The position numbers and the translations under genes were made by a program. DNA of 64,000 bases from Myxococcales bacterium (lineage in GTDB: Bacteria > Myxococcota > UBA727 > JABDBI01), in NCBI GenBank assembly GCA_023898405.1, contig CP060221.1:2322481-2386480 (forward strand), written 5' to 3'. This document shows, piece after piece, positions 4,145-62,564 of this stretch (the first letter of the stretch is position 1; the number at the start of each line of letters is the position of its first letter). The notes beneath the pieces are model-generated. The model was not told the origin of the DNA. It made no database searches and was given only the letters and a program-made list of their open reading frames with translations.

Positions 4145-4219
4145 GGGCCCGTAGCTCAGCGGTAGAGCATTCGGCTCATAACCGACAGCGCGCTGGTTCG
4201 AATCCGGCCGGGCCCACCA
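4145..4219 (+). tRNA. tRNA-Met (anticodon CAU); an elongator Met or Ile2-lysidine type.
   Basis: Cloverleaf folded by hand. Acceptor GGGCCCG/CGGGCCC, anticodon loop CTCATAA, T-arm GGTTCGAATCC, 3' CCA encoded. G1-C72 argues against an initiator tRNA. Confidence 0.8.
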
Positions 4220-11049: not shown

Positions 11050-11124
11050 GCTGACGTAGCTCAACGGTAGAGCGCCTGCCTTGTAAGCAGGGGGTTGCGG
11101 GTTCGAATCCCATCGTCAGCTCCA
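11050..11124 (+). tRNA. tRNA-Thr (UGU).
   Basis: Manual cloverleaf. Anticodon loop CTTGTAA. T-arm GGTTCGAATCC. CCA encoded. Confidence 0.8.
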
Positions 11125-11139
11125 AAATTTATTTTTTTT

Positions 11140-11225
<86 letters not shown>

Positions 11226-11229
11226 GGAT

Positions 11230-11305
11230 GCGGGAGTAGCTCAGTTGGTAGAGCGTCAGCCTTCCAAGCTGAATGTCGCGGGTTCGAATCCCGTCTCCCG
11301 CTCCA
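11230..11305 (+). tRNA. tRNA-Gly (UCC).
   Basis: Acceptor GCGGGAG/CTCCCGC. Anticodon loop CTTCCAA. CCA encoded. Confidence 0.8.
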
Positions 11306-11314
11306 TTTTTGTAG

Positions 11315-11390
<76 letters not shown>

Positions 11391-11393
11391 TTT

Positions 11394-11421
11394 GAAATGC
11401 TGTATTAGGGCATTTTTTTTA
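11394..11421 (+). terminator. Rho-independent terminator after the tRNA cluster, at the position where tuf normally sits.
   Basis: Hairpin AAATGC-tgtattagg-GCATTT followed by a T8 run. Confidence 0.55.
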
Positions 11422-11475
11422 TTATTTGGCTCGCCTTCATTTGGCTTTTGAGTTATGAGTAGAGAGTGCAATTGT

Positions 11476-11551
11476 AGGTCACTAGCTCAACTGGTAGAGC
11501 ACCGGTCTCCAAAACCGGGGGTTGGGGGTTCGATTCCCTCGTGGCCTGCCA
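11476..11551 (+). tRNA. tRNA-Trp (CCA).
   Basis: Acceptor AGGTCAC/GTGGCCT. Anticodon loop CTCCAAA. T-arm GGTTCGATTCC. CCA encoded. Located immediately upstream of secE, as in the canonical cluster. Confidence 0.8.
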
Positions 11552-12035: not shown

Positions 12036-12225
12036 TAGAAAAGTTTTTGTTTAAGCATATTTAATGTGCTTTTTGAGGGCTTCTTAATAAGTTAGAATTA
12101 TAGGAATTTAGAAAAGCAATGCTGAAGGCCCTTGCGTTTACATGTATTGATGGCACACTGCAGCTACCTTTGGCGGGCATTTCATGCCGCGTGATTCCAT
12201 AACATTTAGCATAGGGCTTTATTTG

Positions 12226-12822
12226 ATGAATGAAGAAAATAAATCTGCTCTTCCTCCAGAAAACGAAGATAGTGCAGAAGAGTTAAAAAATACTAATATG
12301 AAATGGTATGTTGTTCATACGCACTCTGGTATGGAAAATAAAGCCAAAAAGTCTTTGCAAGAGCGAATTGTTCAATATGGGTTTGAAGATAAATTTGGCG
12401 AAATTTTGGTGCCAACAGAAACCATAGAGCATGTAAAAAATAATGTACGCAGGGTTCAAAGTCGTAAATGTCTTCCAGGCTACATGATCGTCCAGATGGA
12501 GCTTAGTGCCGAGACAAGTCAGCTTGTGCGTGGAACTTCCAAAATAGCGGGTTTCGTAGGGGGAAGTAAGATGCCTTCTCCTATTACTCGTGCTGAAGCC
12601 GAGCGCATGATGCAATTGTCAAAAGGGATAAAAACAACTGTGGTGACGTTGGAGTTTTCTGAAGGCGAAAACGTTAAGGTTACAGATGGCCCATTTGCAA
12701 ATTTCCAAGGTACGATTGAAGAAGTTAAGCCCGAGAAGAAGAAATTGAGAGTGTTGGTTTCTATATTTGGCCGTTCAACTCCGGTTGAGCTTGATTTCAA
12801 TCAAGTTGAAAAAATAGGTTGA
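12226..12822 (+). CDS. nusG: Transcription termination/antitermination factor NusG.
   Basis: NGN domain ([19 protein letters not shown]) and C-terminal KOW motif ([21 protein letters not shown]). The start is ambiguous among 12184, 12226 and 12298. Confidence 0.85.
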
Positions 12823-13402: not shown

Positions 13403-14107
13403 ATGTCAAAACGTGGAAAAAATTATATTAATGCGCACAAAAAAGTTAACCATGATCAACGCTATGGTTTAGAAGATGGGTGTGCAGTTCTTAAAGAGAC
13501 TAAACGTGCAAAGTTCGATGAGTCTGCTGATGTTGCCATTAATCTCGGAGTAGATCCTCGACATGCCGATCAGATGGTTCGTGGTGCTGTTGTTTTGCCT
13601 CACGGAACAGGAAAGACCGTTCGTGTAGCAGTATTTGCTAAAGGCCCTAAAGCTGAAGAAGCAAAAAATGCTGGAGCCGACTTAGTTGGAGCCGAAGATC
13701 TGGCTGCAAAAATTGAAGGAGGATTTCTCGATTTTGATCGTGTGATTGCTGAACCTTCAATGATGGCTGTTGTTGGTAAGCTTGGAAGAGTATTGGGGCC
13801 TCGCGGTTTGATGCCAAACCCGAAAGTCGGTACCGTTACAGTTGATATCGGTCGTGCAGTTGAAGAAGCTAAAGGCGGTAAGATCGAATTTCGTGTTGAT
13901 AAGACTGGTACATTGCATGCTCCTTTTGGCAGAGCTTCTTTTGCCAAAGAGAAATTACATGAAAATTTGAAGGCTTTGCTTGAGTCAGTGCAGAGAGCGC
14001 GTCCTCATAGTGTTAAAGGGCAATATATGCAAAAAATTGTTATCTCTTTAACTATGGGGCCAGGTGTAAAACTTGACGTTCAGCAAATCGCTGCGCTTCT
14101 TGCATAG
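13403..14107 (+). CDS. rplA: 50S ribosomal protein L1.
   Basis: L1 colinearity (KRGK...[12 protein letters not shown]...[10 protein letters not shown]). Confidence 0.9.
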
Positions 14108-17989: not shown

Positions 17990-18556
17990 TCAATTTTGAA
18001 TGAGAGATTTTTCGCGCATCCAGTCTAGGGCGGTTTTATTATTTTCATGAGCAGCGACTTTTTGTGGTGTCCACCCATCGCTGTCCTCTGCCAAAAAATT
18101 ACCACCATGCTGGTATAAAAGGTTAAAAATTTCAGTTTCGGAATGCCTTCTTACTGCGATATGAACGGGCGTCCATCCTTTATAAAAACAGCCGTGAGAG
18201 TTGACGGTATCTTCTAAAGTCGCGTTTGGATCGGCTCCATTCTCAAGTAAAAGCCTAAGTATTTCAATGTTTACTTTTTTATACCTAAGAAGATTATGAA
18301 GGGGACTAAAACCATGCTTTAGACGGCAATTTAAGATATTTTCTCTTTGACTATCGGTAAGACGAGAAATAAAATTCTCAACCTTTTGATCATTGTTTTT
18401 GCTTATCAGACCATTAAGAGTTTTTCCATCTAGGGGCTGAGCAGAATGGCGGGAGTAATGATTTTGTGAACGATGCCTTCTTTGGGAAGTATTTGATGCG
18501 TGTAGAAGAGACGAACAAAAAAATAGGGTGCCAAGCACCAAGACTAAGTTTTTCAT
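17990..18556 (-). CDS. Secreted ankyrin-repeat protein.
   Basis: Signal peptide. Ankyrin repeats (GFSPLHNLL..., GWTPVHIAVRRHSETEIFNLLYQHGGN, DGWTPQKVAA). Confidence 0.7.
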   Translation of the reverse strand: MKNLVLVLGTLFFCSSLLHASNTSQRRHRSQNHYSRHSAQPLDGKTLNGLISKNNDQKVENFISRLTDSQRENILNCRLKHGFSPLHNLLRYKKVNIEILRLLLENGADPNATLEDTVNSHGCFYKGWTPVHIAVRRHSETEIFNLLYQHGGNFLAEDSDGWTPQKVAAHENNKTALDWMREKSLIQN

Positions 18557-18717: not shown

Positions 18718-19203
18718 ATGAAAAGTTTATTAATTATTTTTACTCTGCTTACTACGCTGAATATAAACGCAAATAGTTTGTCAAACCGGTGTGCTTCACT
18801 GGAAACAGAATTGCAAGAAGCTTTATCTCAGCCAAATTTAAAGGCTGAGTTCCTCGATCAGGAGAGCATCAAAAAGTGCTTTAATGCAAAATTGGTTTTA
18901 AGCAACAACTATGACGGGTATTCCAAGGATAACTACGAATTATTTATGAATGAATTGAATGGAGTGTTGATCGATATTGATCAGAGCTTGACTATTATGG
19001 ATCAAGTAAACGAAAATTTGGCTCAGAGTAATCATACATTGGAAGAGTCTCAAGCATTGGTAAATACTATAAATCTTTGGCAATTCACAAAATTTGGAAA
19101 GAAATTTTACCTTGTAGCAAGCGGTTTTGGCGATGATGACTTTTTTGTGAATACGCTTTTTAAAGGTGACGAGACAAAAATATTGTTGATGAGAGCTGAA
19201 TAA
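18718..19203 (+). CDS. Hypothetical secreted protein.
   Basis: Signal peptide MKSLLIIFTLLTTLNINA. AAGGAG RBS before the second ATG. No recognisable domain. Confidence 0.4.
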   Translation: MKSLLIIFTLLTTLNINANSLSNRCASLETELQEALSQPNLKAEFLDQESIKKCFNAKLVLSNNYDGYSKDNYELFMNELNGVLIDIDQSLTIMDQVNENLAQSNHTLEESQALVNTINLWQFTKFGKKFYLVASGFGDDDFFVNTLFKGDETKILLMRAE

Positions 19204-19283
19204 ATTTAATTTGAGTGCCCTAAAGCCAATTTCTTTGTAGTATGCAGACCTGATTCTAAGAAAGAGCGCTCAAAGGAGAGATT

Positions 19284-20063
19284 ATGTCTGCATTGCTTAT
19301 AAATTACGAGAAGGATATCGTTCACATTGTGCTCAACCGGCCAGAGGTTCGCAATGCACTCAACAAGGAACTTTTGACCGAGCTTTCTCATGAGCTAGAA
19401 AGCATAAATAAAAATTCAAAGCTGCGTGCGGCACTCTTTTATAGCAGTAGTGAGAAAGCATTTTGTGCGGGAGCAGATTTAAAAGAGCGCGCGGCAATGT
19501 CAGAACAGGAGACCTTTGGATTTGTAAAACTGATTCAGTCAACAATTAACAAAATTGCACTTTTAAAAATTCCAACTATAGCCGCAGTCAATGGTGAAGC
19601 ATTTGGTGGAGGGCTTGAGCTTGCATTAGCATGCGATATGCGCATCGGATCAGAGGATATTCAGCTTGGCCTTACTGAGTGTTCATTAGGAATTATACCG
19701 GGGGCAGGAGGAACTCAACGGCTCCCAAAAATTGTAGGAATCTCTCGAGCTATGGAGATGATATTCATGGCTAAGCGAATGAAAGGCAAAGAAGCCTACG
19801 CTATAGCTTTGCTTAATGAGTTGGTAACTTCTCGCAGTGAGGTGGTTGGCAAAGCACAACAATGGGCGACAATTATTGCCAATAATGCGCCACTAGCGAT
19901 TAGAGCTGCCAAAAAGGCTCTTACAAAAAATAATGCCAAAACTTTTAATGATGCCTTGGCTTTTGAGCTTGAATGCTATCAAGAAATAATTTCCACCAGC
20001 GATCGTTTAGAAGCTCTGCGCGCTTTTAGAGAAAAAAGACTGCCACAATTCCGTGGTGAATAA
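19284..20063 (+). CDS. Enoyl-CoA hydratase/isomerase (crotonase) family protein.
   Basis: Crotonase fold motifs (FCAGADLKE, AAVNGEAFGGGLELALACDMRI). Confidence 0.8.
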   Translation: MSALLINYEKDIVHIVLNRPEVRNALNKELLTELSHELESINKNSKLRAALFYSSSEKAFCAGADLKERAAMSEQETFGFVKLIQSTINKIALLKIPTIAAVNGEAFGGGLELALACDMRIGSEDIQLGLTECSLGIIPGAGGTQRLPKIVGISRAMEMIFMAKRMKGKEAYAIALLNELVTSRSEVVGKAQQWATIIANNAPLAIRAAKKALTKNNAKTFNDALAFELECYQEIISTSDRLEALRAFREKRLPQFRGE

Positions 20064-20111
20064 ATTTTAGGCTATTTGGCTACAAATTTTACCAACACCC
20101 AAGTAAAAATT

Positions 20112-20609
20112 TTATTTAGTTGGAGTTTTCTGTGGTGTCTGTGGAGGCCTCATATACATGTGTCCTCTTCCATGATGCATCATCCAATCTTGATTGTTTT
20201 GGTGCATTGGCATTGGAGCTGAATAGTTATGCATTGGATGTGGTTGAGGTAGTGTCTGGGGTTTTAAGGTTTTTGCAGGCTCATCGGGATCGGCAGATTG
20301 GTCTGGTTGATAACCATACATGTGCATGAAGGGCATGCTGCTTCCCATGTGATGCTGGTGCCAAGGCTCATTCATCATTAAGGGATGGGGAAAGTTCCAA
20401 GAGGAGCCTTCATCGTTCATGATGATAGAGTGTGAGCTTAAGAAGCTTAGGTAGCCAAGGCCCACAAAGGCGATGAGGGTAACTAAAAATCCTAGCACTT
20501 TTGCTAGAATAACACCGCGACCATGCGAGCGATAAGCCCAGATGCTGATCGATACTCCAAGAGTAAAAGTAATTAAACCTAAAAAAAATGCTGCGATAAT
20601 GGTAATCAT
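20112..20609 (-). CDS. Small membrane protein with a Met/His-rich C-terminal tail; a putative Cu/metal-binding protein.
   Basis: Two N-terminal TM helices. The tail is rich in HxxM/MxM/MH motifs (HQHHMGSSMPFMHMY, MPMHQNNQDWMMHHGRGHMYM). Confidence 0.45.
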   Translation of the reverse strand: MITIIAAFFLGLITFTLGVSISIWAYRSHGRGVILAKVLGFLVTLIAFVGLGYLSFLSSHSIIMNDEGSSWNFPHPLMMNEPWHQHHMGSSMPFMHMYGYQPDQSADPDEPAKTLKPQTLPQPHPMHNYSAPMPMHQNNQDWMMHHGRGHMYMRPPQTPQKTPTK

Positions 20610-20998
20610 ATGTATGTTCTTTTGAATTGATTAAAAAACTACGCTCGTTATCCTATTAAAAACCCAGATCTGAAACATTAAAAAATAGGATCATTTAGAC
20701 TGAATATTTCTAATTTATTGATTTAGAGACTGTTTTGAAAATAGTTTTTCGCTAACCAAAGAAAGCATTTTTTGACCACTATCACGTGTCATTACCTCTA
20801 TCCCCTGTCATCCACGCGCAGGTGGGGAAGCAAATAGAGGGTCATAGTTGCTCTTTTAGTTCAATGAGTGACACTTTTTTTAACTATGCAGCACTATCGG
20901 CTCTATTTCTATATTCAAAAAGAAACGGCTGACTTTATGTCGGAGGTAGCAATGACTTGTTTCATAGGAGTTATATGGCAAGCGAAGAAGTTATTTAC

Positions 20999-21150
20999 AT
21001 GGAATGATTTATATTTTCATTTTTACTAGACAGTTAGCTGTTTTTGCTGGATCCCCGCCTGCGCGGGGATGACAAGTGATAATAGTCAAAATGATGGGTG
21101 GTCGAGCACACCTTAGTTTGGTTAAACAAATCAAGGAGATTTTCAAAAGA
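20999..21150. repeat. Copy A of a ~150-bp dispersed repeat (MITE-like) containing the GC-rich palindrome GGATCCCCGCCTGCGCGGGGATGACAAG.
   Basis: Aligns at roughly 88% identity with 62461-62564 (inverted) and with 62596-62700 (direct). Confidence 0.55.
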
Positions 21151-21280
21151 CTAAGAATAACTGCCTGCTTATACTTAATTTTTATATTCATTTAGCAATT
21201 GCATATATTTTGCTAGCACGGCTTAACAACACCATTTTGATTTTCCAAACAGTCTTTTGAAGATTGTTTTGAAAATAGGG

Positions 21281-23923
21281 TTAACAGCCAGTATCGATTT
21301 CAAAACAATAAAGGTGTCTTGGTTGATTGCAATTTCCAACCCCGTAGTGAATCCAAACGGGACCAGCATAGTTTGAGCGTCCTCGATAGCCTCGATGGAA
21401 TTGTTTTGCAGATGTCCAGTTGTTGCAGTTATTGGATAGTTCAGCGGTACCATCAGGTTTGGTGCCGGTCCAAACGAAATTATTGCCCACATTATTGCCG
21501 AATTCGTCTACATTTATAGCTTGGTCTAAAACTCCATCAAAGAGATCAGCTTTGCTGTGTGCTATGACATTCGGTGGCCCACTGAGCATGACCCAGGCTT
21601 TATCGTTGCAGTTTATTAATCTGTCAAATGCATTAGAGGTGTCATCAGAGATAAGAGCTACCCAGGTACCTCCTAGTGAAGCAGCATCTGCTCTCGCTTG
21701 GCACAATGAATCAGCAGTGACAACTTCTAGTGTTGTTTCGCTGTTATTAAATTTTTTGGAGTTTCCAAAAGAACCGTCATAGGTTGTACTTGTAATAAAT
21801 ACATTGAGGGTTGATGGGGCACAATCATCATCAAATTCATCGATATTATCGTCGCAGTCATCGTCGATACCATTATCGCAGATTTCTACGCCAGGAGTAC
21901 CAGAGCAGACACCGCCACTGCATACATCGCCGCTCGTACATGTCATTCCATCATCGCAAGGAGAAGTATTATTGGGGTGAGTACAATTGCCGAGTTGGCA
22001 GTAGTCATCAGTGCAAACGTTGGTGTCAGCAGTGCAAGGAGTGCCATTAGTTAGAGGAGTGAATTGGCAACTACCCAAGAAACACGCACCTGTGGTGCAT
22101 TCATTGCCATCATCACAAATTATGGCGGTACTGTTACATATTCCTGCGCTGCACAAATCATTGGTGCATGCATCGCCGTCGGAGCAAATATTGCTATCGT
22201 CATTTGTGCTGAGACATGACCCTGCACTGCATGCATCGTCGGTGCAATCATTGCCATCAGAACAGGTATTGCTATCGTTGTTAGTAGCATTGCACAGCGT
22301 GGCGAGGCATGTGTTATCGGTGCAAGGATTTCCATCGTCTTGACACGTAGTTCCTGTAGGGCAATCGAGAGTATCAAGACAATCGACTAACAAGTCTCCG
22401 TCGTTATCTACGCCATCATCGCAGATTTCTCCGCCGCAATCGGGGTCAAGTCCATCGATTAAACCATCGCAATCATCATCTATGCCGTTAGCGCAATTTT
22501 CTATTCCTGGTGTTCCCGCACAAACACCATCGGTACAAATATCGCTTGATGTACAGGCCTGGCCATCATCACAAGAAGTTCCATTGGAGACATTGGTTGA
22601 TTGGCAGGTTCCTGTTATCAAACATATGTCAGTAGTGCACTGATTAGAATCAGTGCATAGATTGGCATCGTTACCTTGATTTACGCAAAAACCTGTTGAT
22701 GGATCGCATGTGTCGTCTGTGCAGCTTTCACTATCGTTACAATCTATTGCCACAGCTCCAAGGCAAGATCCTGCACTGCAACTTTCACCGGTGGTGCAGA
22801 GGTCGCCGTCTTCACAACTTTGTGCATCGCAATCTGGGTCTTCACAATCTATGAGTCCGTCAAAATCATTGTCGATCAAATCGCTGCAGTTAGTTTCATC
22901 GAGATAGCAATCCCCTCCACAAACACATCCGGTAGGGACAGGAGTAGCACCATCACATTCTTCATAAGGGCGATTAAAAGCCAAACCATCGAGGCCATCC
23001 TGCACGAGTGTTGCAGGGAGCTTTATAAATGAAAACTCTCCAGTTGTTGTATTAAAAGTGCCGAGATAATTCTCTGAAGGAGAGGACATACCTGAAGCTT
23101 TATTGTTGATGGAAGCATAAATAATACCCGTTAAAAAATCAGCTTCCAGGCCATTGGTACGTGGACGGTTATTGGCAGGGTCAAAGAAAATCAAATCGGT
23201 TATGGGGGTAGCCATTCCTGTTGAGGTATCAAGTTTCGAGAGCTTAAAATTACCGGCTTGATAAAGAGGTTGAGATGGGTAGGTAGGAAACTCGGCAAAA
23301 GTAAGGCCATTGCCTATTTCAGCTTGGGCAAAATTGGGATCACCAACTTCGGTATAAGCGCCAGTGCTGACATTTATTGTACCGAGCCTGTCTTCGTTAA
23401 CACTGTTTTGTGGACTTTGTTTTTTATAAACGAATAATTGCCCGTATTGATTAAAGCTCATATCAGTCAGAGCGGTGCCTGTTGCTAAAGCCACTCCAGT
23501 TTGTCCAATCACGGTGGCTTGCGCAGTTTGGCAATCGATGGTCATTAGAATACTTTTGTTATTGTAGGGATTTTGTGTACCAGTACCGAGAGCATAGAGC
23601 ACGCCTTCAGGAGAAAAATCGAGACTTGTAACCCTTCGAATCTGCATTCCTGTGCCGCTTTGGGCTATAGCTCCAATATCGATTACTTGTCCATCATAGG
23701 CATTGACTGCATAGAGATGGCTTTGAGTCTGTGGGTTGATAGAGTCAGTCGCATAGAGTTTGTATGGGCAATTAGGGTTCATAAAGTTGTAGGGCAATAC
23801 TTCTTGAATTCCGTTGCCGCAGCCGCAAACCTGAGCAGATTCACCTTCATCTGATTTCTTTGCGTTAAGTGCAGAGGCAAAAGTAATCGATAATAAAAAT
23901 AGTGCTACAAAAAAACGCATCAC
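21281..23923 (-). CDS. Secreted cysteine-rich repeat protein, 880 aa, paralog 1. Beta-propeller-like N-terminal region, MopE-like metal-binding motifs, Myxococcus-type Cys repeats, C-terminal C-type-lectin-like (DUF1554-like) domain.
   Basis: Signal peptide MMRFFVALFLLSITFASALNA. Four CxxG(I/V)D(N/D)DCDGxxD motifs. About 10 repeats of the C(T/S)DDxC...G.C type. C-terminal WIHYG...C...LYCFE lectin-fold pattern. Confidence 0.7.
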   Translation of the reverse strand: MMRFFVALFLLSITFASALNAKKSDEGESAQVCGCGNGIQEVLPYNFMNPNCPYKLYATDSINPQTQSHLYAVNAYDGQVIDIGAIAQSGTGMQIRRVTSLDFSPEGVLYALGTGTQNPYNNKSILMTIDCQTAQATVIGQTGVALATGTALTDMSFNQYGQLFVYKKQSPQNSVNEDRLGTINVSTGAYTEVGDPNFAQAEIGNGLTFAEFPTYPSQPLYQAGNFKLSKLDTSTGMATPITDLIFFDPANNRPRTNGLEADFLTGIIYASINNKASGMSSPSENYLGTFNTTTGEFSFIKLPATLVQDGLDGLAFNRPYEECDGATPVPTGCVCGGDCYLDETNCSDLIDNDFDGLIDCEDPDCDAQSCEDGDLCTTGESCSAGSCLGAVAIDCNDSESCTDDTCDPSTGFCVNQGNDANLCTDSNQCTTDICLITGTCQSTNVSNGTSCDDGQACTSSDICTDGVCAGTPGIENCANGIDDDCDGLIDGLDPDCGGEICDDGVDNDGDLLVDCLDTLDCPTGTTCQDDGNPCTDNTCLATLCNATNNDSNTCSDGNDCTDDACSAGSCLSTNDDSNICSDGDACTNDLCSAGICNSTAIICDDGNECTTGACFLGSCQFTPLTNGTPCTADTNVCTDDYCQLGNCTHPNNTSPCDDGMTCTSGDVCSGGVCSGTPGVEICDNGIDDDCDDNIDEFDDDCAPSTLNVFITSTTYDGSFGNSKKFNNSETTLEVVTADSLCQARADAASLGGTWVALISDDTSNAFDRLINCNDKAWVMLSGPPNVIAHSKADLFDGVLDQAINVDEFGNNVGNNFVWTGTKPDGTAELSNNCNNWTSAKQFHRGYRGRSNYAGPVWIHYGVGNCNQPRHLYCFEIDTGC

Positions 23924-24094
23924 GATTTGCTCTTTATGTTTTATGTGACTGTCTTATGGTACAAATTTTATTGTGATAATTCTAAAAAATAGTTTTGTTT
24001 TAAAGATTTTTTATTTTTATTAGCATATATCGATTAAATTACGTGTTTAATCATCGTTAGTGCTGTCTGAATTTTATGTTGAAATATTGTTTTT

Positions 24095-26701
24095 CTAACA
24101 GCCAGTATCGATTTCAAAGCAATAGAGGTGTCTTGTTTGATTGCAGTTATTCGAGCCGTAATGGATCCAGTAATTATCAGTATAGAACGAGCGCCCTAAG
24201 TAACCCCTTTGAGTGTTACTCCCTGAGCTCCAATTGTTACAGTTAAAAGATGGCTCAAACGTGCCATCGATTTTTGTTCCGGTCCAAACGAAATTATTGC
24301 CCACATTATTGCCGAATTCGTCTACATTTATAGCTTGGTCTAAAACTCCATCAAAGAGATCAGCTTTGCTGTGAGCTATTATATTGGGTGGGCCGCTCAG
24401 TAAAATCCATGACTTATCGTTACAATTGAGCACTCGATCAAAAGCATTGGAAGTATTATCAGATATCATTGCTACCCATGTTCCACCCAAAGATTGTGAA
24501 TCAGCTCGTGCTTGGCATAAGCCATCTGCCCCTGAGACTCCACCTAAGTTTCCATTATAGCTTGTACTGGAAACAAATACCCTTAGGTTTTCTGCAAAGC
24601 AATCATCATCAAATTCATCGATATTATCGTCGCAGTCATCGTCGATACCATTATCGCAGATTTCTACGCCAGGAGTACCAGAGCAGACACCGCCACTGCA
24701 TACATCGCCGCTCGTACATGTCATTCCATCATCGCAAGGAGAAGTATTATTGGGGTGAGTACAATTGCCGAGTTGGCAGTAGTCATCAGTGCAAACGTTG
24801 GTGTCAGCAGTGCAAGGAGTGCCATTAGTTAGAGGAGTGAATTGGCAACTACCCAAGAAGCACGCACCTATGGTGCATTCATTGCCATCATCACAAATTA
24901 TGGCGGTACTGTTACATATTCCTGTGCTGCACAAATCATTGGTGCATGCATCGCCGTCGGAGCAAATATTGCTATCGTCATTTGTGCTGAGACATGACCC
25001 TGCACTGCATGCATCGTCGGTGCAATCATTGCCATCAGAACAGGTATTGCTATCGTTGTTAGTAGCATTGCACAGCGTGGCGAGGCATGTGTTATCGGTG
25101 CAAGGATTTCCATCGTCTTGACACGTAGTTCCTGTAGGGCAATCGAGAGTATCAAGACAATCGACTAACAAGTCTCCGTCGTTATCTACGCCATCATCGC
25201 AGATTTCTCCGCCGCAATCGGGGTCAAGTCCATCGATTAAACCATCGCAATCATCATCTATGCCGTTAGCGCAATTTTCTATTCCTGGTGTTCCCGCACA
25301 AACACCATCGGTACAAATATCGCTTGATGTACAGGCCTGGCCATCATCACAAGAAGTTCCATTGGAGACATTGGTTGATTGGCAGGTTCCTGTTATCAAA
25401 CATATGTCAGTAGTGCACTGATTAGAATCAGTGCATAGATTGGCATCGTTACCTTGATTTACGCAAAAACCTGTTGATGGATCGCATGTGTCGTCTGTGC
25501 AGCTTTCACTATCGTTACAATCTATTGCCACAGCTCCAAGGCAAGATCCTGCACTGCAACTTTCACCGGTGGTGCAGAGGTCGCCGTCTTCACAACTTTG
25601 TGCATCGCAATCTGGGTCTTCACAATCTATGAGTCCGTCAAAATCATTGTCGATCAAATCGCTGCAGTTAGTTTCATCGAGATAGCAATCCCCTCCACAA
25701 ACACATCCGGTAGGGACAGGAGTAGCACCATCACATTCTTCATAAGGGCGATTAAAAGCCAAACCATCGAGGCCATCCTGCACGAGTGTTGCAGGGAGCT
25801 TTATAAATGAAAACTCTCCAGTTGTTGTATTAAAAGTGCCGAGATAATTCTCTGAAGGAGAGGACATACCTGAAGCTTTATTGTTGATGGAAGCATAAAT
25901 AATACCCGTTAAAAAATCAGCTTCCAGGCCATTGGTACGTGGACGGTTATTGGCAGGGTCAAAGAAAATCAAATCGGTTATGGGGGTAGCCATTCCTGTT
26001 GAGGTATCAAGTTTCGAGAGCTTAAAATTACCGGCTTGATAAAGAGGTTGAGATGGGTAGGTAGGAAACTCGGCAAAAGTAAGGCCATTGCCTATTTCAG
26101 CTTGGGCAAAATTGGGATCACCAACTTCGGTATAAGCGCCAGTGCTGACATTTATTGTACCGAGCCTGTCTTCGTTAACACTGTTTTGTGGACTTTGTTT
26201 TTTATAAACGAATAATTGCCCGTATTGATTAAAGCTCATATCAGTCAGAGCGGTGCCTGTTGCTAAAGCCACTCCAGTTTGTCCAATCACGGTGGCTTGC
26301 GCAGTTTGGCAATCGATGGTCATTAGAATACTTTTGTTATTGTAGGGATTTTGTGTACCAGTACCGAGAGCATAGAGCACGCCTTCAGGAGAAAAATCGA
26401 GACTTGTAACCCTTAGAATAGGCATAGCGGTACCTGTTTCTGCTATAGCTCCAATATCGATCATTTGCCCATCGTAAGTATTGACAGCAAAGAGGTGACT
26501 TTGACTCAGTGGGTTAATAGTATTTGTTGCATAGAGTTTGTATGGGCAATTAGGGTTCATAAAGTTGTAGGGCAATACTTCTTGAATTCCGTTGCCGCAG
26601 CCGCAAACCTGAGCAGATTCACCTTCATCTGATTTCTTTGCGTTAAGTGCAGAGGCAAAAGTAATCGATAATAAAAATAGTGCTACCAAAAAACGCATCA
26701 C
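24095..26701 (-). CDS. Secreted cysteine-rich repeat protein, 868 aa, paralog 2. Same architecture as paralog 1 but with a divergent N-terminal patch and a divergent C-terminal lectin-like domain.
   Basis: As for paralog 1. C-terminal domain is about 65% identical to paralog 1 (my by-eye estimate from the two C-terminal sequences). The central ~600 aa are identical. Confidence 0.7.
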   Translation of the reverse strand: MMRFLVALFLLSITFASALNAKKSDEGESAQVCGCGNGIQEVLPYNFMNPNCPYKLYATNTINPLSQSHLFAVNTYDGQMIDIGAIAETGTAMPILRVTSLDFSPEGVLYALGTGTQNPYNNKSILMTIDCQTAQATVIGQTGVALATGTALTDMSFNQYGQLFVYKKQSPQNSVNEDRLGTINVSTGAYTEVGDPNFAQAEIGNGLTFAEFPTYPSQPLYQAGNFKLSKLDTSTGMATPITDLIFFDPANNRPRTNGLEADFLTGIIYASINNKASGMSSPSENYLGTFNTTTGEFSFIKLPATLVQDGLDGLAFNRPYEECDGATPVPTGCVCGGDCYLDETNCSDLIDNDFDGLIDCEDPDCDAQSCEDGDLCTTGESCSAGSCLGAVAIDCNDSESCTDDTCDPSTGFCVNQGNDANLCTDSNQCTTDICLITGTCQSTNVSNGTSCDDGQACTSSDICTDGVCAGTPGIENCANGIDDDCDGLIDGLDPDCGGEICDDGVDNDGDLLVDCLDTLDCPTGTTCQDDGNPCTDNTCLATLCNATNNDSNTCSDGNDCTDDACSAGSCLSTNDDSNICSDGDACTNDLCSTGICNSTAIICDDGNECTIGACFLGSCQFTPLTNGTPCTADTNVCTDDYCQLGNCTHPNNTSPCDDGMTCTSGDVCSGGVCSGTPGVEICDNGIDDDCDDNIDEFDDDCFAENLRVFVSSTSYNGNLGGVSGADGLCQARADSQSLGGTWVAMISDNTSNAFDRVLNCNDKSWILLSGPPNIIAHSKADLFDGVLDQAINVDEFGNNVGNNFVWTGTKIDGTFEPSFNCNNWSSGSNTQRGYLGRSFYTDNYWIHYGSNNCNQTRHLYCFEIDTGC

Positions 26702-26886
26702 GATTTGCTCTTTATGTTTTATGTGACTGTCTTATGATACCAATTTTATTGTGATAATTCTAAAAATATGAACTTACACTGGTTTTAAAAGATAAAAAAT
26801 AAAACCCTTTTTGTTTAAAATTACTCCAGTGATTTTAAATAAATAACTGCAATAAAGAAAAAAGGGTTTTTATGGGCACTGTAGAA

Positions 26887-30267: not shown

Positions 30268-30572
30268 GTGAATGTTCCTCAAAAATATTGCTGCCGCTAT
30301 GGCATCGATTATTGCAAGCCGCAAAGTCTAACTAAGCTAAGTAATTTGTAAAGATGCGATAAAAAGTAAAACCATTGATAGTGTAATTGTGGCTGCCATC
30401 CATTCAGAGAGATGCATCAAACTCAATTGGTGTGGTTGATTGATAAGATCTACTTTTGAATGATTTGTGCTTCTATTTGATGAGATTATATTTATTTTTT
30501 AATATTATGTGATTAAAATGTTACAATTGTGGAATCATATTGCTTTTTTTGTCTCTTGATTGGGTTAAGTTG

Positions 30573-31979
30573 ATGTTAAATTTGCTCAGGTTTAGCTGTT
30601 TTGTTTTTGCTGTATGCTTGTTATTTGTTTTGGCATGTTCGTCAGAGGAAAATAATAAAAATTTAACACCAAAAAATAGAGTAAATAGCGAGCAATATTC
30701 GAATTTTAATGAAACAAAATCTAAGGCAAAAAAAGAACTTGCAGCTTATAAGTCTGAATATAGTAAAATAGATTCATTGATTAATGATAAATATAGCGGT
30801 TTTAATAATCATTACCGTATCTCTAAGGGGGAAAACAGCTTTTTTACTCGATTAGATTATAAACAGGTGCAATTTTATGCTGATCTTTCTGACTTAATTT
30901 ACGTTAAAAAATATAAAGAATTTGATGATGTTGTTAGAGAGTTAGAGTTGAAATTAAAAGATGATAACTACAAAGAATATGAATTGTTGAGCACACTGGA
31001 AAGAAATTTTGGAAAAAATTCCAAAGAACTGTCAGCAATTTTTCTTTACAATGAATCAATAAACCACCTCATCGTTGTGTTTAAGGGGACAGTTACGATG
31101 GCGGATTGGTTAAAAAATATTTCCTTTAAAAACTATAGTGGTTTAGATCCAAGTGAGTCACTCAAAGCTATCGATGGGTCAAGTCTGAATATCCATGAAG
31201 GCTTTGCCCGCGCATATATTGAGGGGCTTAGTTCGGCATTCCTATACAAGTTTGATGATTTTTTTATAAATCGTTATACCGTTCCCGCTGATAGTACGTT
31301 GCCACTTCGAATAACTACTACGGGACATTCATTAGGAGGAGCATTGGCTCTTATTTTGGCGAACGATTTACCCAGACTTTTAATTGGTGTTGGGAAATTT
31401 TTTGATGATTCCCAAGTGTTGATCGAAACCATAACTTTTGGTGCTCCTCGAGTCTATGATGCTCAATCGTCAAGAATAGTAGAACAAGCTTTAGCTGGGG
31501 CCCACAATATTATTCGTATAGTAAATGAAGGAGACCCTGTTCCTGATATGCCGAGCAAAACTCTGCTTGGGGGAGCAGACATTGGAACCCCAATCTACAT
31601 ACCATATTCAGGCTTTGTCAAAAATCCTTTGCAGCATATGATGGGTAAATATGCCAAAGAATCTGCTCATGTTTTTAAAAAAATCAAGCAAGATGCGCTT
31701 AAAGCTCGTGAAGTCAAGGACAAAATAATTGAGCTAAAAGCTGAATTAGGTGACAAAAGTGAAAATTTATTTGATAAAGTCGACGAAAGAGAAAAATTAA
31801 AGATGTTATTAGATAAAAATAAATCAAGGCTCATGCTTACGAGAAGAGTTTTAAAAATGGTAAGAGATGAACACTTTCATCTTCCGCTATCCGATTTGAA
31901 AGAATTTGAAAGAGAAGAAAAACTCTTAATTGAAAACAATAAAAAATTATTAAGTGAATTAGGGCGCTTATCGAACTAG
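30573..31979 (+). CDS. Class-3 (fungal-type) lipase lipoprotein with a C-terminal coiled-coil tail.
   Basis: Lipobox LAC|S. Nucleophile elbow GHSLGGALA. The C-terminal ~100 aa are charged and heptad-like. Confidence 0.7.
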   Translation: MLNLLRFSCFVFAVCLLFVLACSSEENNKNLTPKNRVNSEQYSNFNETKSKAKKELAAYKSEYSKIDSLINDKYSGFNNHYRISKGENSFFTRLDYKQVQFYADLSDLIYVKKYKEFDDVVRELELKLKDDNYKEYELLSTLERNFGKNSKELSAIFLYNESINHLIVVFKGTVTMADWLKNISFKNYSGLDPSESLKAIDGSSLNIHEGFARAYIEGLSSAFLYKFDDFFINRYTVPADSTLPLRITTTGHSLGGALALILANDLPRLLIGVGKFFDDSQVLIETITFGAPRVYDAQSSRIVEQALAGAHNIIRIVNEGDPVPDMPSKTLLGGADIGTPIYIPYSGFVKNPLQHMMGKYAKESAHVFKKIKQDALKAREVKDKIIELKAELGDKSENLFDKVDEREKLKMLLDKNKSRLMLTRRVLKMVRDEHFHLPLSDLKEFEREEKLLIENNKKLLSELGRLSN

Positions 31980-62460: not shown

Positions 62461-62564
62461 TGAAAGTCTCTTTGATTTGTTTAACCAAACCAAGGTGTGC
62501 TCGACTATCCATCGTTTTGACCATTATTCTTGTCATCGCCGCGCAGGCGGGGAGAGCAATGACT
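62461..62564 (-). repeat. Copy B1 (right-half, inverted) of the ~150-bp palindrome-bearing repeat.
   Basis: Reverse complement aligns with 21053-21146, including the CCCCGCCTGCGCGG core. Confidence 0.55.

Follow-up and report, generated by a model that had tools for sequence, protein, structure and literature searches.

P1 and P2 are two tandem paralogous genes on the minus strand of a 64,000-nucleotide (nt) stretch of contig CP060221.1 (2,515,055 bp) from a Myxococcales bacterium (the whole stretch is called the window here). In both encoded proteins, a putative signal peptide is followed by a predicted beta-propeller, an acidic Cys-rich stalk, and an endostatin-like head (Table 1), and the two translations share 92% amino acid (aa) identity. 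A preliminary description of the DNA had reported the P1 open reading frame and a paralog, and the list of open reading frames contains both. The P1 frame opens with GTG-ATG; the ATG at 23920, which would give a protein of 879 aa, is the probable true start rather than the GTG, because an independent ENA copy (P0001) has the same 879-aa start. The independent ENA assembly L068 matches window positions 19107 to 24333 at 99.96%, and no further copies of the P1/P2 gene were found within the window.

Table 1. Features of the P1/P2 locus and its surroundings (positions in the window; the last two rows refer to L001 and L002)
Feature	Position	Strand	Remarks
P1 coding sequence	21281..23923	minus	880 codons from GTG; USN50695.1, "hypothetical protein H6731_10630"
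P1 signal peptide, aa 1-18	23870..23923	minus	...TFASA/LN; hydrophobicity profile and inspection
CxCGNGIQE cap and five-bladed beta-propeller (DUF4394/DUF6923 type), aa 33-322	22958..23827	minus	
P1 stalk, aa 323-702	21818..22957	minus	ten Dicty_CTDC-like repeats of four Cys each; four acidic motifs
Acidic motif 1, teneurin C-rich-like, aa 342-370	22814..22900	minus	7plp match; NF033662
Acidic motifs 2 and 3, aa 475-521	22361..22501	minus	NF033662 40.6 bits (cut-off 41); PF11617 13.9 bits
Acidic motif 4, aa 680-701	21821..21886	minus	
P1 endostatin-like/DUF1554 domain, aa 703-880	21284..21817	minus	12-aa low-confidence loop insertion relative to P2
Upstream region of P1, 65 bp	23924..23988	minus	2 mismatches to P2 upstream region 26702-26766; each copy has its own 5' region
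Divergent patch (propeller blade 1), aa 58-97, nt 174-287	23637..23750	minus	29 mismatches/114 nt
Identical tract, P1 nt 288-2102	21822..23636	minus	corresponds to P2 24600-26414; 3 mismatches/1815 nt (99.8%)
P2 coding sequence, tandem paralog	24095..26701	minus	868 aa; USN50696.1, "DUF1554 domain-containing protein"
P2 endostatin-like/DUF1554 domain, aa 703-868	24098..24595	minus	
LonB/LonC-like AAA protease, 830 aa	26887-29379	minus	AAA_32, LonB_AAA-LID, Lon_C; directly upstream of P2
Ankyrin-repeat protein	17990-18556	minus	flanks the P1/P2 locus
Class-3 lipase	30540-31979	plus	flanks the P1/P2 locus
Five-tRNA cluster	11050-11548	plus	followed by nusG and rplA
nusG	12184-12822		after the tRNA cluster
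rplA	13403-14107		after the tRNA cluster
Further single tRNA	4145-4216	plus	
Relative in L001	129-2009		lipoprotein (626-645 aa for the two relatives)
Relative in L002	5632-7569		lipoprotein (as above)

Modules of the P1 and P2 proteins

The sole hydrophobic segment of P1 lies at its N terminus and carries a cleavage-type site (ASA/LN), and neither the hydrophobicity profile nor inspection revealed any other transmembrane-like segment in the protein, in agreement with the Sec signal proposed in the preliminary description. We infer that P1 and P2 are exported, disulfide-forming proteins. More distant relatives (family alignment A1; L001 and L002) carry lipobox-like signals followed by long linkers, which is consistent with surface display.

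The ~300-aa N-terminal region had been described as propeller-like, and both profile searches and structure prediction bear this out. DUF4394 (PF14339) scored 30.0 bits on the isolated N-domain of P1 (gathering threshold [GA], 29.6), a match confined to profile positions 21 to 80 of 230, and a subthreshold 23 bits in the full-length P1 scan. A profile search with the N-domain retrieved ~300-aa proteins of DUF4394/PF21959, with E values down to 1e-43; its matches by sequence to beta-propellers in the PDB are generic (7 to 17% identity) and assign no function. The predicted model of the domain is a five-bladed propeller. If P1 and P2 were extracellular enzymes, this propeller would be catalytic (nucleotidase/apyrase-, glutaminyl-cyclase-, or glycoside-hydrolase-like), and the stalk and head would only target it. 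We regard this as distinctly improbable, given that DUF4394/DUF6923 is a family without known activity, that a literature search for DUF4394 found no paper, and that no hidden Markov model of a catalytic family matched.

The stalk, 380 aa in length, contains 56 Cys and 81 Asp/Glu residues and neither Lys nor Arg. From its Cys spacing, it holds four acidic motifs of the form D-x-D-x-D-G-x-x-D (aa 346 to 365, 477 to 496, 501 to 521, and 682 to 701) and ten Cys repeat units, the same numbers as first described. The units had been taken for six-cysteine repeats of the myxo_disulf_rpt kind, whereas each has four cysteines (C-x5-C-x4-5-C-x4-5-C), and TIGR02232 (NCBIfam) gave no match at E ≤ 10 with either the whole protein or the stalk. 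They are instead probably of the Dicty_CTDC type (PF00526), which reached 26.1 bits over five stretches of the isolated P1 stalk (0.9 bit below the GA of 27), was subthreshold in the full-length P1 Pfam scan, and matched 8 of 13 family members, with a best E value of 1.4e-12.

The Cys, Asp, and Asn positions of the acidic motifs are invariant in the family alignment. The pattern CxxG(I/V)D(N/D)DCDGxxD, which had been proposed for all four motifs, fits two of them and not the other two. NF033662 (acid_disulf_rpt, acidic double-disulfide repeat) matched all four in four stretches, at 40.0 to 40.6 bits (E ~1e-10) and thus just short of its cut-off of 41, and it fits them better than the MopE motif PF11617 that had been named initially. 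When PDB sequences were searched with the stalk by phmmer, only teneurins were found; motif 1 aligned with residues 835 to 869 of the teneurin-4 C-rich domain (7PLP; E = 1.9e-4), with five of six Cys conserved. The crystal structure of that domain contains three Ca2+ ions in a geometry like that of thrombospondin type-3 repeats, with E835, D840, D843, N844, D845, D847, D851, D854, and D856 as ligands (PMC9058538), and residues E343, D348, D351, N352, D353, D355, D359, D362, and D364 of motif 1 are identical to all nine. Because of this alignment, we infer that the acidic motifs are Ca2+ sites and that calcium is a likelier ligand than copper of the MopE type. The competing reading, in which the motifs would be MopE-type sites for copper or another transition metal with a role in metal acquisition, could draw on the weak matches of isolated motifs to the C-terminal half of PF11617 (13.9 to 16.5 bits, E = 0.01 to 0.07, profile positions 15 to 30 of 30). 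These matches are below the GA of 27, however, and absent in whole-protein scans, while the ligand set consists entirely of carboxylates and Asn, as is typical of Ca2+, and aligns with the crystallographic ligands of teneurin-4; a copper-type pattern of His, Met, or Cys thiolates is not evident, and we give the MopE reading next to no credence.

For the C-terminal domain, DUF1554 (PF07588) scored 44.7 bits in the whole P2 protein (GA, 27.5) and 32.7 bits on the isolated P1 C-domain, and it was not reported in the full-length P1 scan. The DUF1554-like assignment made at the outset thus holds, and the C-terminal strings quoted for it (LCQARAD..., FVWTGT, NCNNW, and WIHYG...) are all present. Among the 13 family members, Pfam Endostatin (PF06482) matched 10, Dicty_CTDC and DUF4394 8 each, and DUF1554 5. 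A C-domain profile built from 25 sequences (alignment A2) matched mouse and human endostatin and the corresponding collagen XV domain with E values of 2.5e-15 to 4e-11, and its four invariant Cys align with the four Cys of endostatin, which form two disulfides. The AlphaFold2 model of the P1 C-domain has a pLDDT of 93.4 and a pTM of 0.90, with a single weak block, the 12-aa loop that is absent in P2. When this model was searched with Foldseek, five endostatin entries were returned at E ~1e-10 and a TM-score of 0.72, and all others had E values above 0.1; no bacterial member of the DUF1554/endostatin-like domain appeared among the solved structures searched. PF00059 gave no match at E ≤ 10 with the isolated C-domain, the whole proteins, or any family member, and EPN, QPD, WND, and WIGL motifs are absent from the C-domain. 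Since both the profile and the model match endostatin, the C-domain is, by prediction, an endostatin-fold member of the C-type-lectin-like superfamily and not a canonical lectin. The C-type-lectin fold initially proposed therefore stands at the level of the superfamily, for which the predicted fold had been set beforehand as a check, and does not extend to PF00059 or to the lectin-site motifs.

A lectin head that recognizes carbohydrates, as C-type lectin domains do, is in our view unlikely. Endostatin itself binds heparan sulfate, and the propeller is similar to five-bladed lectins such as tachylectin-2 and to glycosidases of GH43; both points speak for carbohydrate recognition. The missing PF00059 match and the missing lectin motifs speak against it, as does the fact that characterized DUF1554 proteins bind extracellular matrix and complement proteins (PMC2063517). 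The link between DUF1554 and endostatin has already been published, the Len proteins of Leptospira being named "leptospiral endostatin-like" (PMC2063517; PMC2387172).

Mosaic divergence of the tandem pair

The differences between P1 and P2 are unevenly distributed (Table 1). Within nt 1 to 173 of the P1 coding sequence, there is one mismatch to P2. The patch in propeller blade 1 that follows has a synonymous divergence (dS) of 1.03 and a ratio of nonsynonymous to synonymous divergence (dN/dS) of 0.16, the adjoining 1.8-kb tract has a dS of 0.003 and sharp boundaries, and over the last ~540 nt, the C-domains share about 75% nucleotide identity, with a dS of 1.84 and a dN/dS of 0.11. The simplest reading is that an old duplication has had its core homogenized by gene conversion, while blade 1 and the head would have been kept as distinct variants under purifying selection.

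Alternatively, the identity of the 1.8-kb tract could be an artifact of assembly or polishing, which would leave P1 and P2 as mere diverged duplicates. Consensus sequences of near-identical repeats are easily homogenized when metagenome-assembled genomes (MAGs) are assembled, and short-read assemblies break at this locus (the contig with the partial protein P0123 measures 7.4 kb, and the one with P0001, 5.2 kb); moreover, the second tandem pair of the family, P0007/P0008, shows a DNA identity of 72 to 74% throughout and has no identical tract. On the other hand, over 5,227 bp of the independent ENA assembly, which take in P1 with its particular patch and head, its flanks, and the last 238 bp of P2, there are 2 mismatches; the tract has sharp boundaries; and its three mismatches are scattered, unlike what a collapse would leave. 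We consider an artifact quite doubtful and retain gene conversion as the likelier explanation.

Two further ideas were examined. A diversity-generating retroelement was rejected, as the differences span a 178-aa domain and a 40-aa blade, involve all base types, and are mostly synonymous (dN/dS of 0.11 to 0.16 and dS of 1.0 to 1.8); no search for a reverse transcriptase was made. Tandem duplication as a rule of the family holds only in part: P0007 and P0008 are in tandem, and the gene after P0002 is unrelated. This gene (positions 2877 to 5330 of L069) encodes a large nonparalogous protein with "GGAI" repeats like those of polymorphic membrane proteins and many thrombospondin-type-3-like DxDxDGxGDxCD repeats, and it thus appears to be another surface protein rich in Ca2+ motifs.

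Relatives and genomic setting

A search of 5.8 billion proteins retrieved about a dozen clusters (at 90% identity) of near-full-length relatives, all metagenomic, with 33 to 62% identity (36 to 62% in alignment A1), and hundreds more proteins that share only the Cys-rich stalk, mostly from MAGs labeled "Deltaproteobacteria" or Myxococcales. An exhaustive profile search of the 50%-identity set gave 45,404 proteins at E ≤ 1e-3, a set in which repeat matches prevail; among the matches listed, four representatives matched end to end in one stretch, and a few further known family members were matched in several separate stretches. The Dicty_CTDC-type four-Cys repeat occurs in thousands of bacterial proteins. 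By these searches, the three-part combination of propeller, four-Cys stalk, and endostatin-like head is rare. Among species-representative genomes, the propeller is shared by two low-GC Myxococcota MAGs only (L001 and L002; GC content of 45.6 to 46.8%). In their proteins, a long Gly-rich linker leads to the CGNGIQE cap and the propeller, and the Cys-rich stalk is shorter; because they lack the endostatin-like head, the head seems to be an optional module of the family.

Some of the proteins found in these searches have further features. Public metagenomes contain giants (P0212 to P0355) that reach 5,481 aa and in which as many as 43 stretches match the four-Cys repeat, and a dozen large proteins carry a DUF1554-like domain among such repeats, with the best stretch at profile positions 697 to 858. 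In P0010 (939 aa), which has a lipobox-like signal, Pfam Collagen triple-helix repeats (E = 9e-13; alignment A1 columns ~130 to 260) precede the propeller, the stalk, and the endostatin-like domain, a pairing of collagen with endostatin as in animal collagens XV and XVIII.

The preliminary description had found it surprising that repeats typical of high-GC Myxococcota occur in a low-GC genome. The source MAG is itself deposited as Myxococcales, contigs with full-length relatives have a GC content of 41 to 42% (41 to 47% for the family as a whole), and the GC content at third codon positions (GC3) of P1 and P2 is 0.37, as compared with a window mean of 0.327 (standard deviation, 0.036) and a range of 0.24 to 0.41 in 24 other genes. 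With a Myxococcales source, low-GC relatives, and a typical GC3, the surprise dissolves. Furthermore, the acidic motif occurs in genomes of Saprospiraceae, Planctomycetota, CPR, and DPANN at any GC content. Together, these observations led us to reject a recent horizontal acquisition from a high-GC myxobacterium and indicate that the P1/P2 family is native to a low-GC myxobacterial lineage.

The neighbors of P1 and P2 encode TruB, an ankyrin-repeat protein, an enoyl-CoA hydratase, the LonB-like protease, CoaE, a class-3 lipase, and ResB. The LonB/LonC-like protease gene shares its strand with P2, and a functional link to P2 is not evident. No conserved operon partners were found, and the locus gives no sign of an operon; the relatives P0005, P0007, and P0002 lie in other contexts. 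The ankyrin-repeat protein and the lipase at the flanks, a genome of 2.5 Mb, and a GC content of ~40% are a hint of a host- or prey-associated lifestyle of the source MAG. A consensus scan for promoters and terminators gave counts no higher than in shuffled sequences.

Just downstream of P1, an element of ~530 bp (20727 to 21255) has ends formed by 16-nt inverted repeats, AGACTGTTTTGAAAAT, and holds the GC-rich palindrome TGTCATCCCCGCGCAGGCGGGGA twice in inverted orientation (20812 to 20827 and 21053 to 21068). A third copy of the palindrome lies at 62537 to 62552, giving three matches where 0.01 would be expected by chance. This could be an element resembling miniature inverted-repeat transposable elements or repetitive extragenic palindromes. 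By eye, the palindrome is similar to the core of a type I-E CRISPR repeat; its spacing is not array-like. Elsewhere in the window, the tRNA cluster with nusG and rplA forms a usual tRNA/ribosomal-protein neighborhood.

Candidate function and comparison with known systems

With moderate confidence, we propose that P1 and P2 act as adhesin-type binding molecules; their structural anatomy is far more secure than this binding role. An adhesin is the best guess because the only characterized bacterial DUF1554 proteins are the Len adhesins of Leptospira. The disulfide-rich stalk with an adhesin head that had been suggested at first is borne out in its signal, its stalk, and its domain of the lectin-like superfamily, and its adhesin part derives from the analogy with Len. 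In the mechanism that we envisage, the proteins would be exported by Sec and form their disulfides, and the acidic motifs would load Ca2+, in the manner of the teneurin C-rich domain and of thrombospondin type-3 repeats; with Ca2+ and about 28 disulfides, the stalk would become rigid enough to serve as a spacer. A ligand on another surface would be contacted by the endostatin-like head and perhaps also by blade 1 of the propeller; by analogy with Len and endostatin, this ligand might belong to a prey cell, a host cell, or a matrix and be either a protein or an anionic polymer. In both genes, the stalk, the 5' region, and the larger part of the propeller would be kept identical by gene conversion, and the pair may present two ligand specificities on one scaffold, since blade 1 and the head look like old variants under purifying selection.

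Several observations weigh against this picture. No lipobox, PEP-CTERM, or other sorting signal is recognizable in P1 or P2. The proposed Ca2+ binding draws on one short, compositionally biased match (E = 1.9e-4). The neighboring genes are unrelated housekeeping genes, in a context that is not kept among the relatives, and polishing of a long-read assembly might make the two copies of the 1.8-kb tract look more alike than they are.

P1 and P2 do not reveal a new kind of system: every module is already catalogued, the endostatin likeness of DUF1554 is published, and P2 is already annotated as a DUF1554 protein. What is rare and undescribed is the three-part architecture, the reading of the bacterial acidic motif as teneurin type, and a pair with a homogenized scaffold and variable cassettes. 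If the proposed role is right, the pair would be a compact, tractable example of how small-genome, uncultured Myxococcota build surface-recognition proteins from a few modules stabilized by disulfides and calcium, and of how gene conversion holds a shared scaffold constant without merging the two binding cassettes. The analysis also provides a confidently predicted structure for a DUF1554 (endostatin-like) domain from a bacterium, relevant to the Len adhesins of Leptospira, and tentatively connects the acidic double-disulfide motif, which is widespread in bacteria, with the teneurin C-rich domain, whose Ca2+ binding is defined crystallographically. A bolder proposal would place the family near the bacterial source, or the recipient, of an inter-kingdom transfer behind the endostatin of collagens XV and XVIII and the teneurin C-rich domain, and would see in the tandem pair a dedicated device by which a small-genome predator or symbiont recognizes with two specificities. 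It is prompted by the endostatin domain, the teneurin-type C-rich module, and the collagen repeats of P0010, which are otherwise modules of animal extracellular matrix and adhesion proteins, and we offer it as highly speculative and probably wrong.

Module by module, the nearest known systems agree with P1 and P2 in part. The secreted DUF4394/DUF6923 proteins have the same propeller family as the N-domain but are mostly stand-alone, often with PEP-CTERM or IPTL-CTERM anchors, whereas in P1 and P2 the propeller follows a conserved CxCGNGIQE cap and is fused to the stalk and the endostatin-like head. Dicty_CTDC proteins of Myxococcota and other bacteria probably share the four-Cys repeat of ~26 aa found in the P1 stalk, whose own score falls just short of the GA. 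Compared with the teneurin C-rich domain, motif 1 lacks the disulfide between Cys 4 and 6, and in motifs 2 and 4 the position of the second Cys is another one, which gives a "CxxGIDDDCDG" form that resembles half of PF11617. The endostatin of animal collagens XV and XVIII (PF06482; PDB 1dy2, 1koe, and 1bnl) is homologous to the P1/P2 head at the profile level (E = 2.5e-15), but identity is only 18 to 21%, and animal endostatin ends a collagen trimer, whereas the P1/P2 domain ends a Cys-rich stalk.

The closest functional parallel is with LenA to LenF and Lp95 of Leptospira, which belong to the same Pfam family, DUF1554 (PF07588), that matches P2 and the isolated P1 C-domain above threshold. 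The Len proteins bind laminin, fibronectin, and factor H and are predicted to be endostatin-like, surface-exposed, multicopy paralogs diversified by recombination (PMC2063517; PMC2387172), a pattern into which the mosaic P1/P2 pair fits. They are, however, small lipoproteins of a mammalian pathogen with little beyond the domain itself, whereas P1 and P2, from an environmental, uncultured MAG, have a propeller and a Cys-rich stalk of 380 aa in addition and are without a lipobox.

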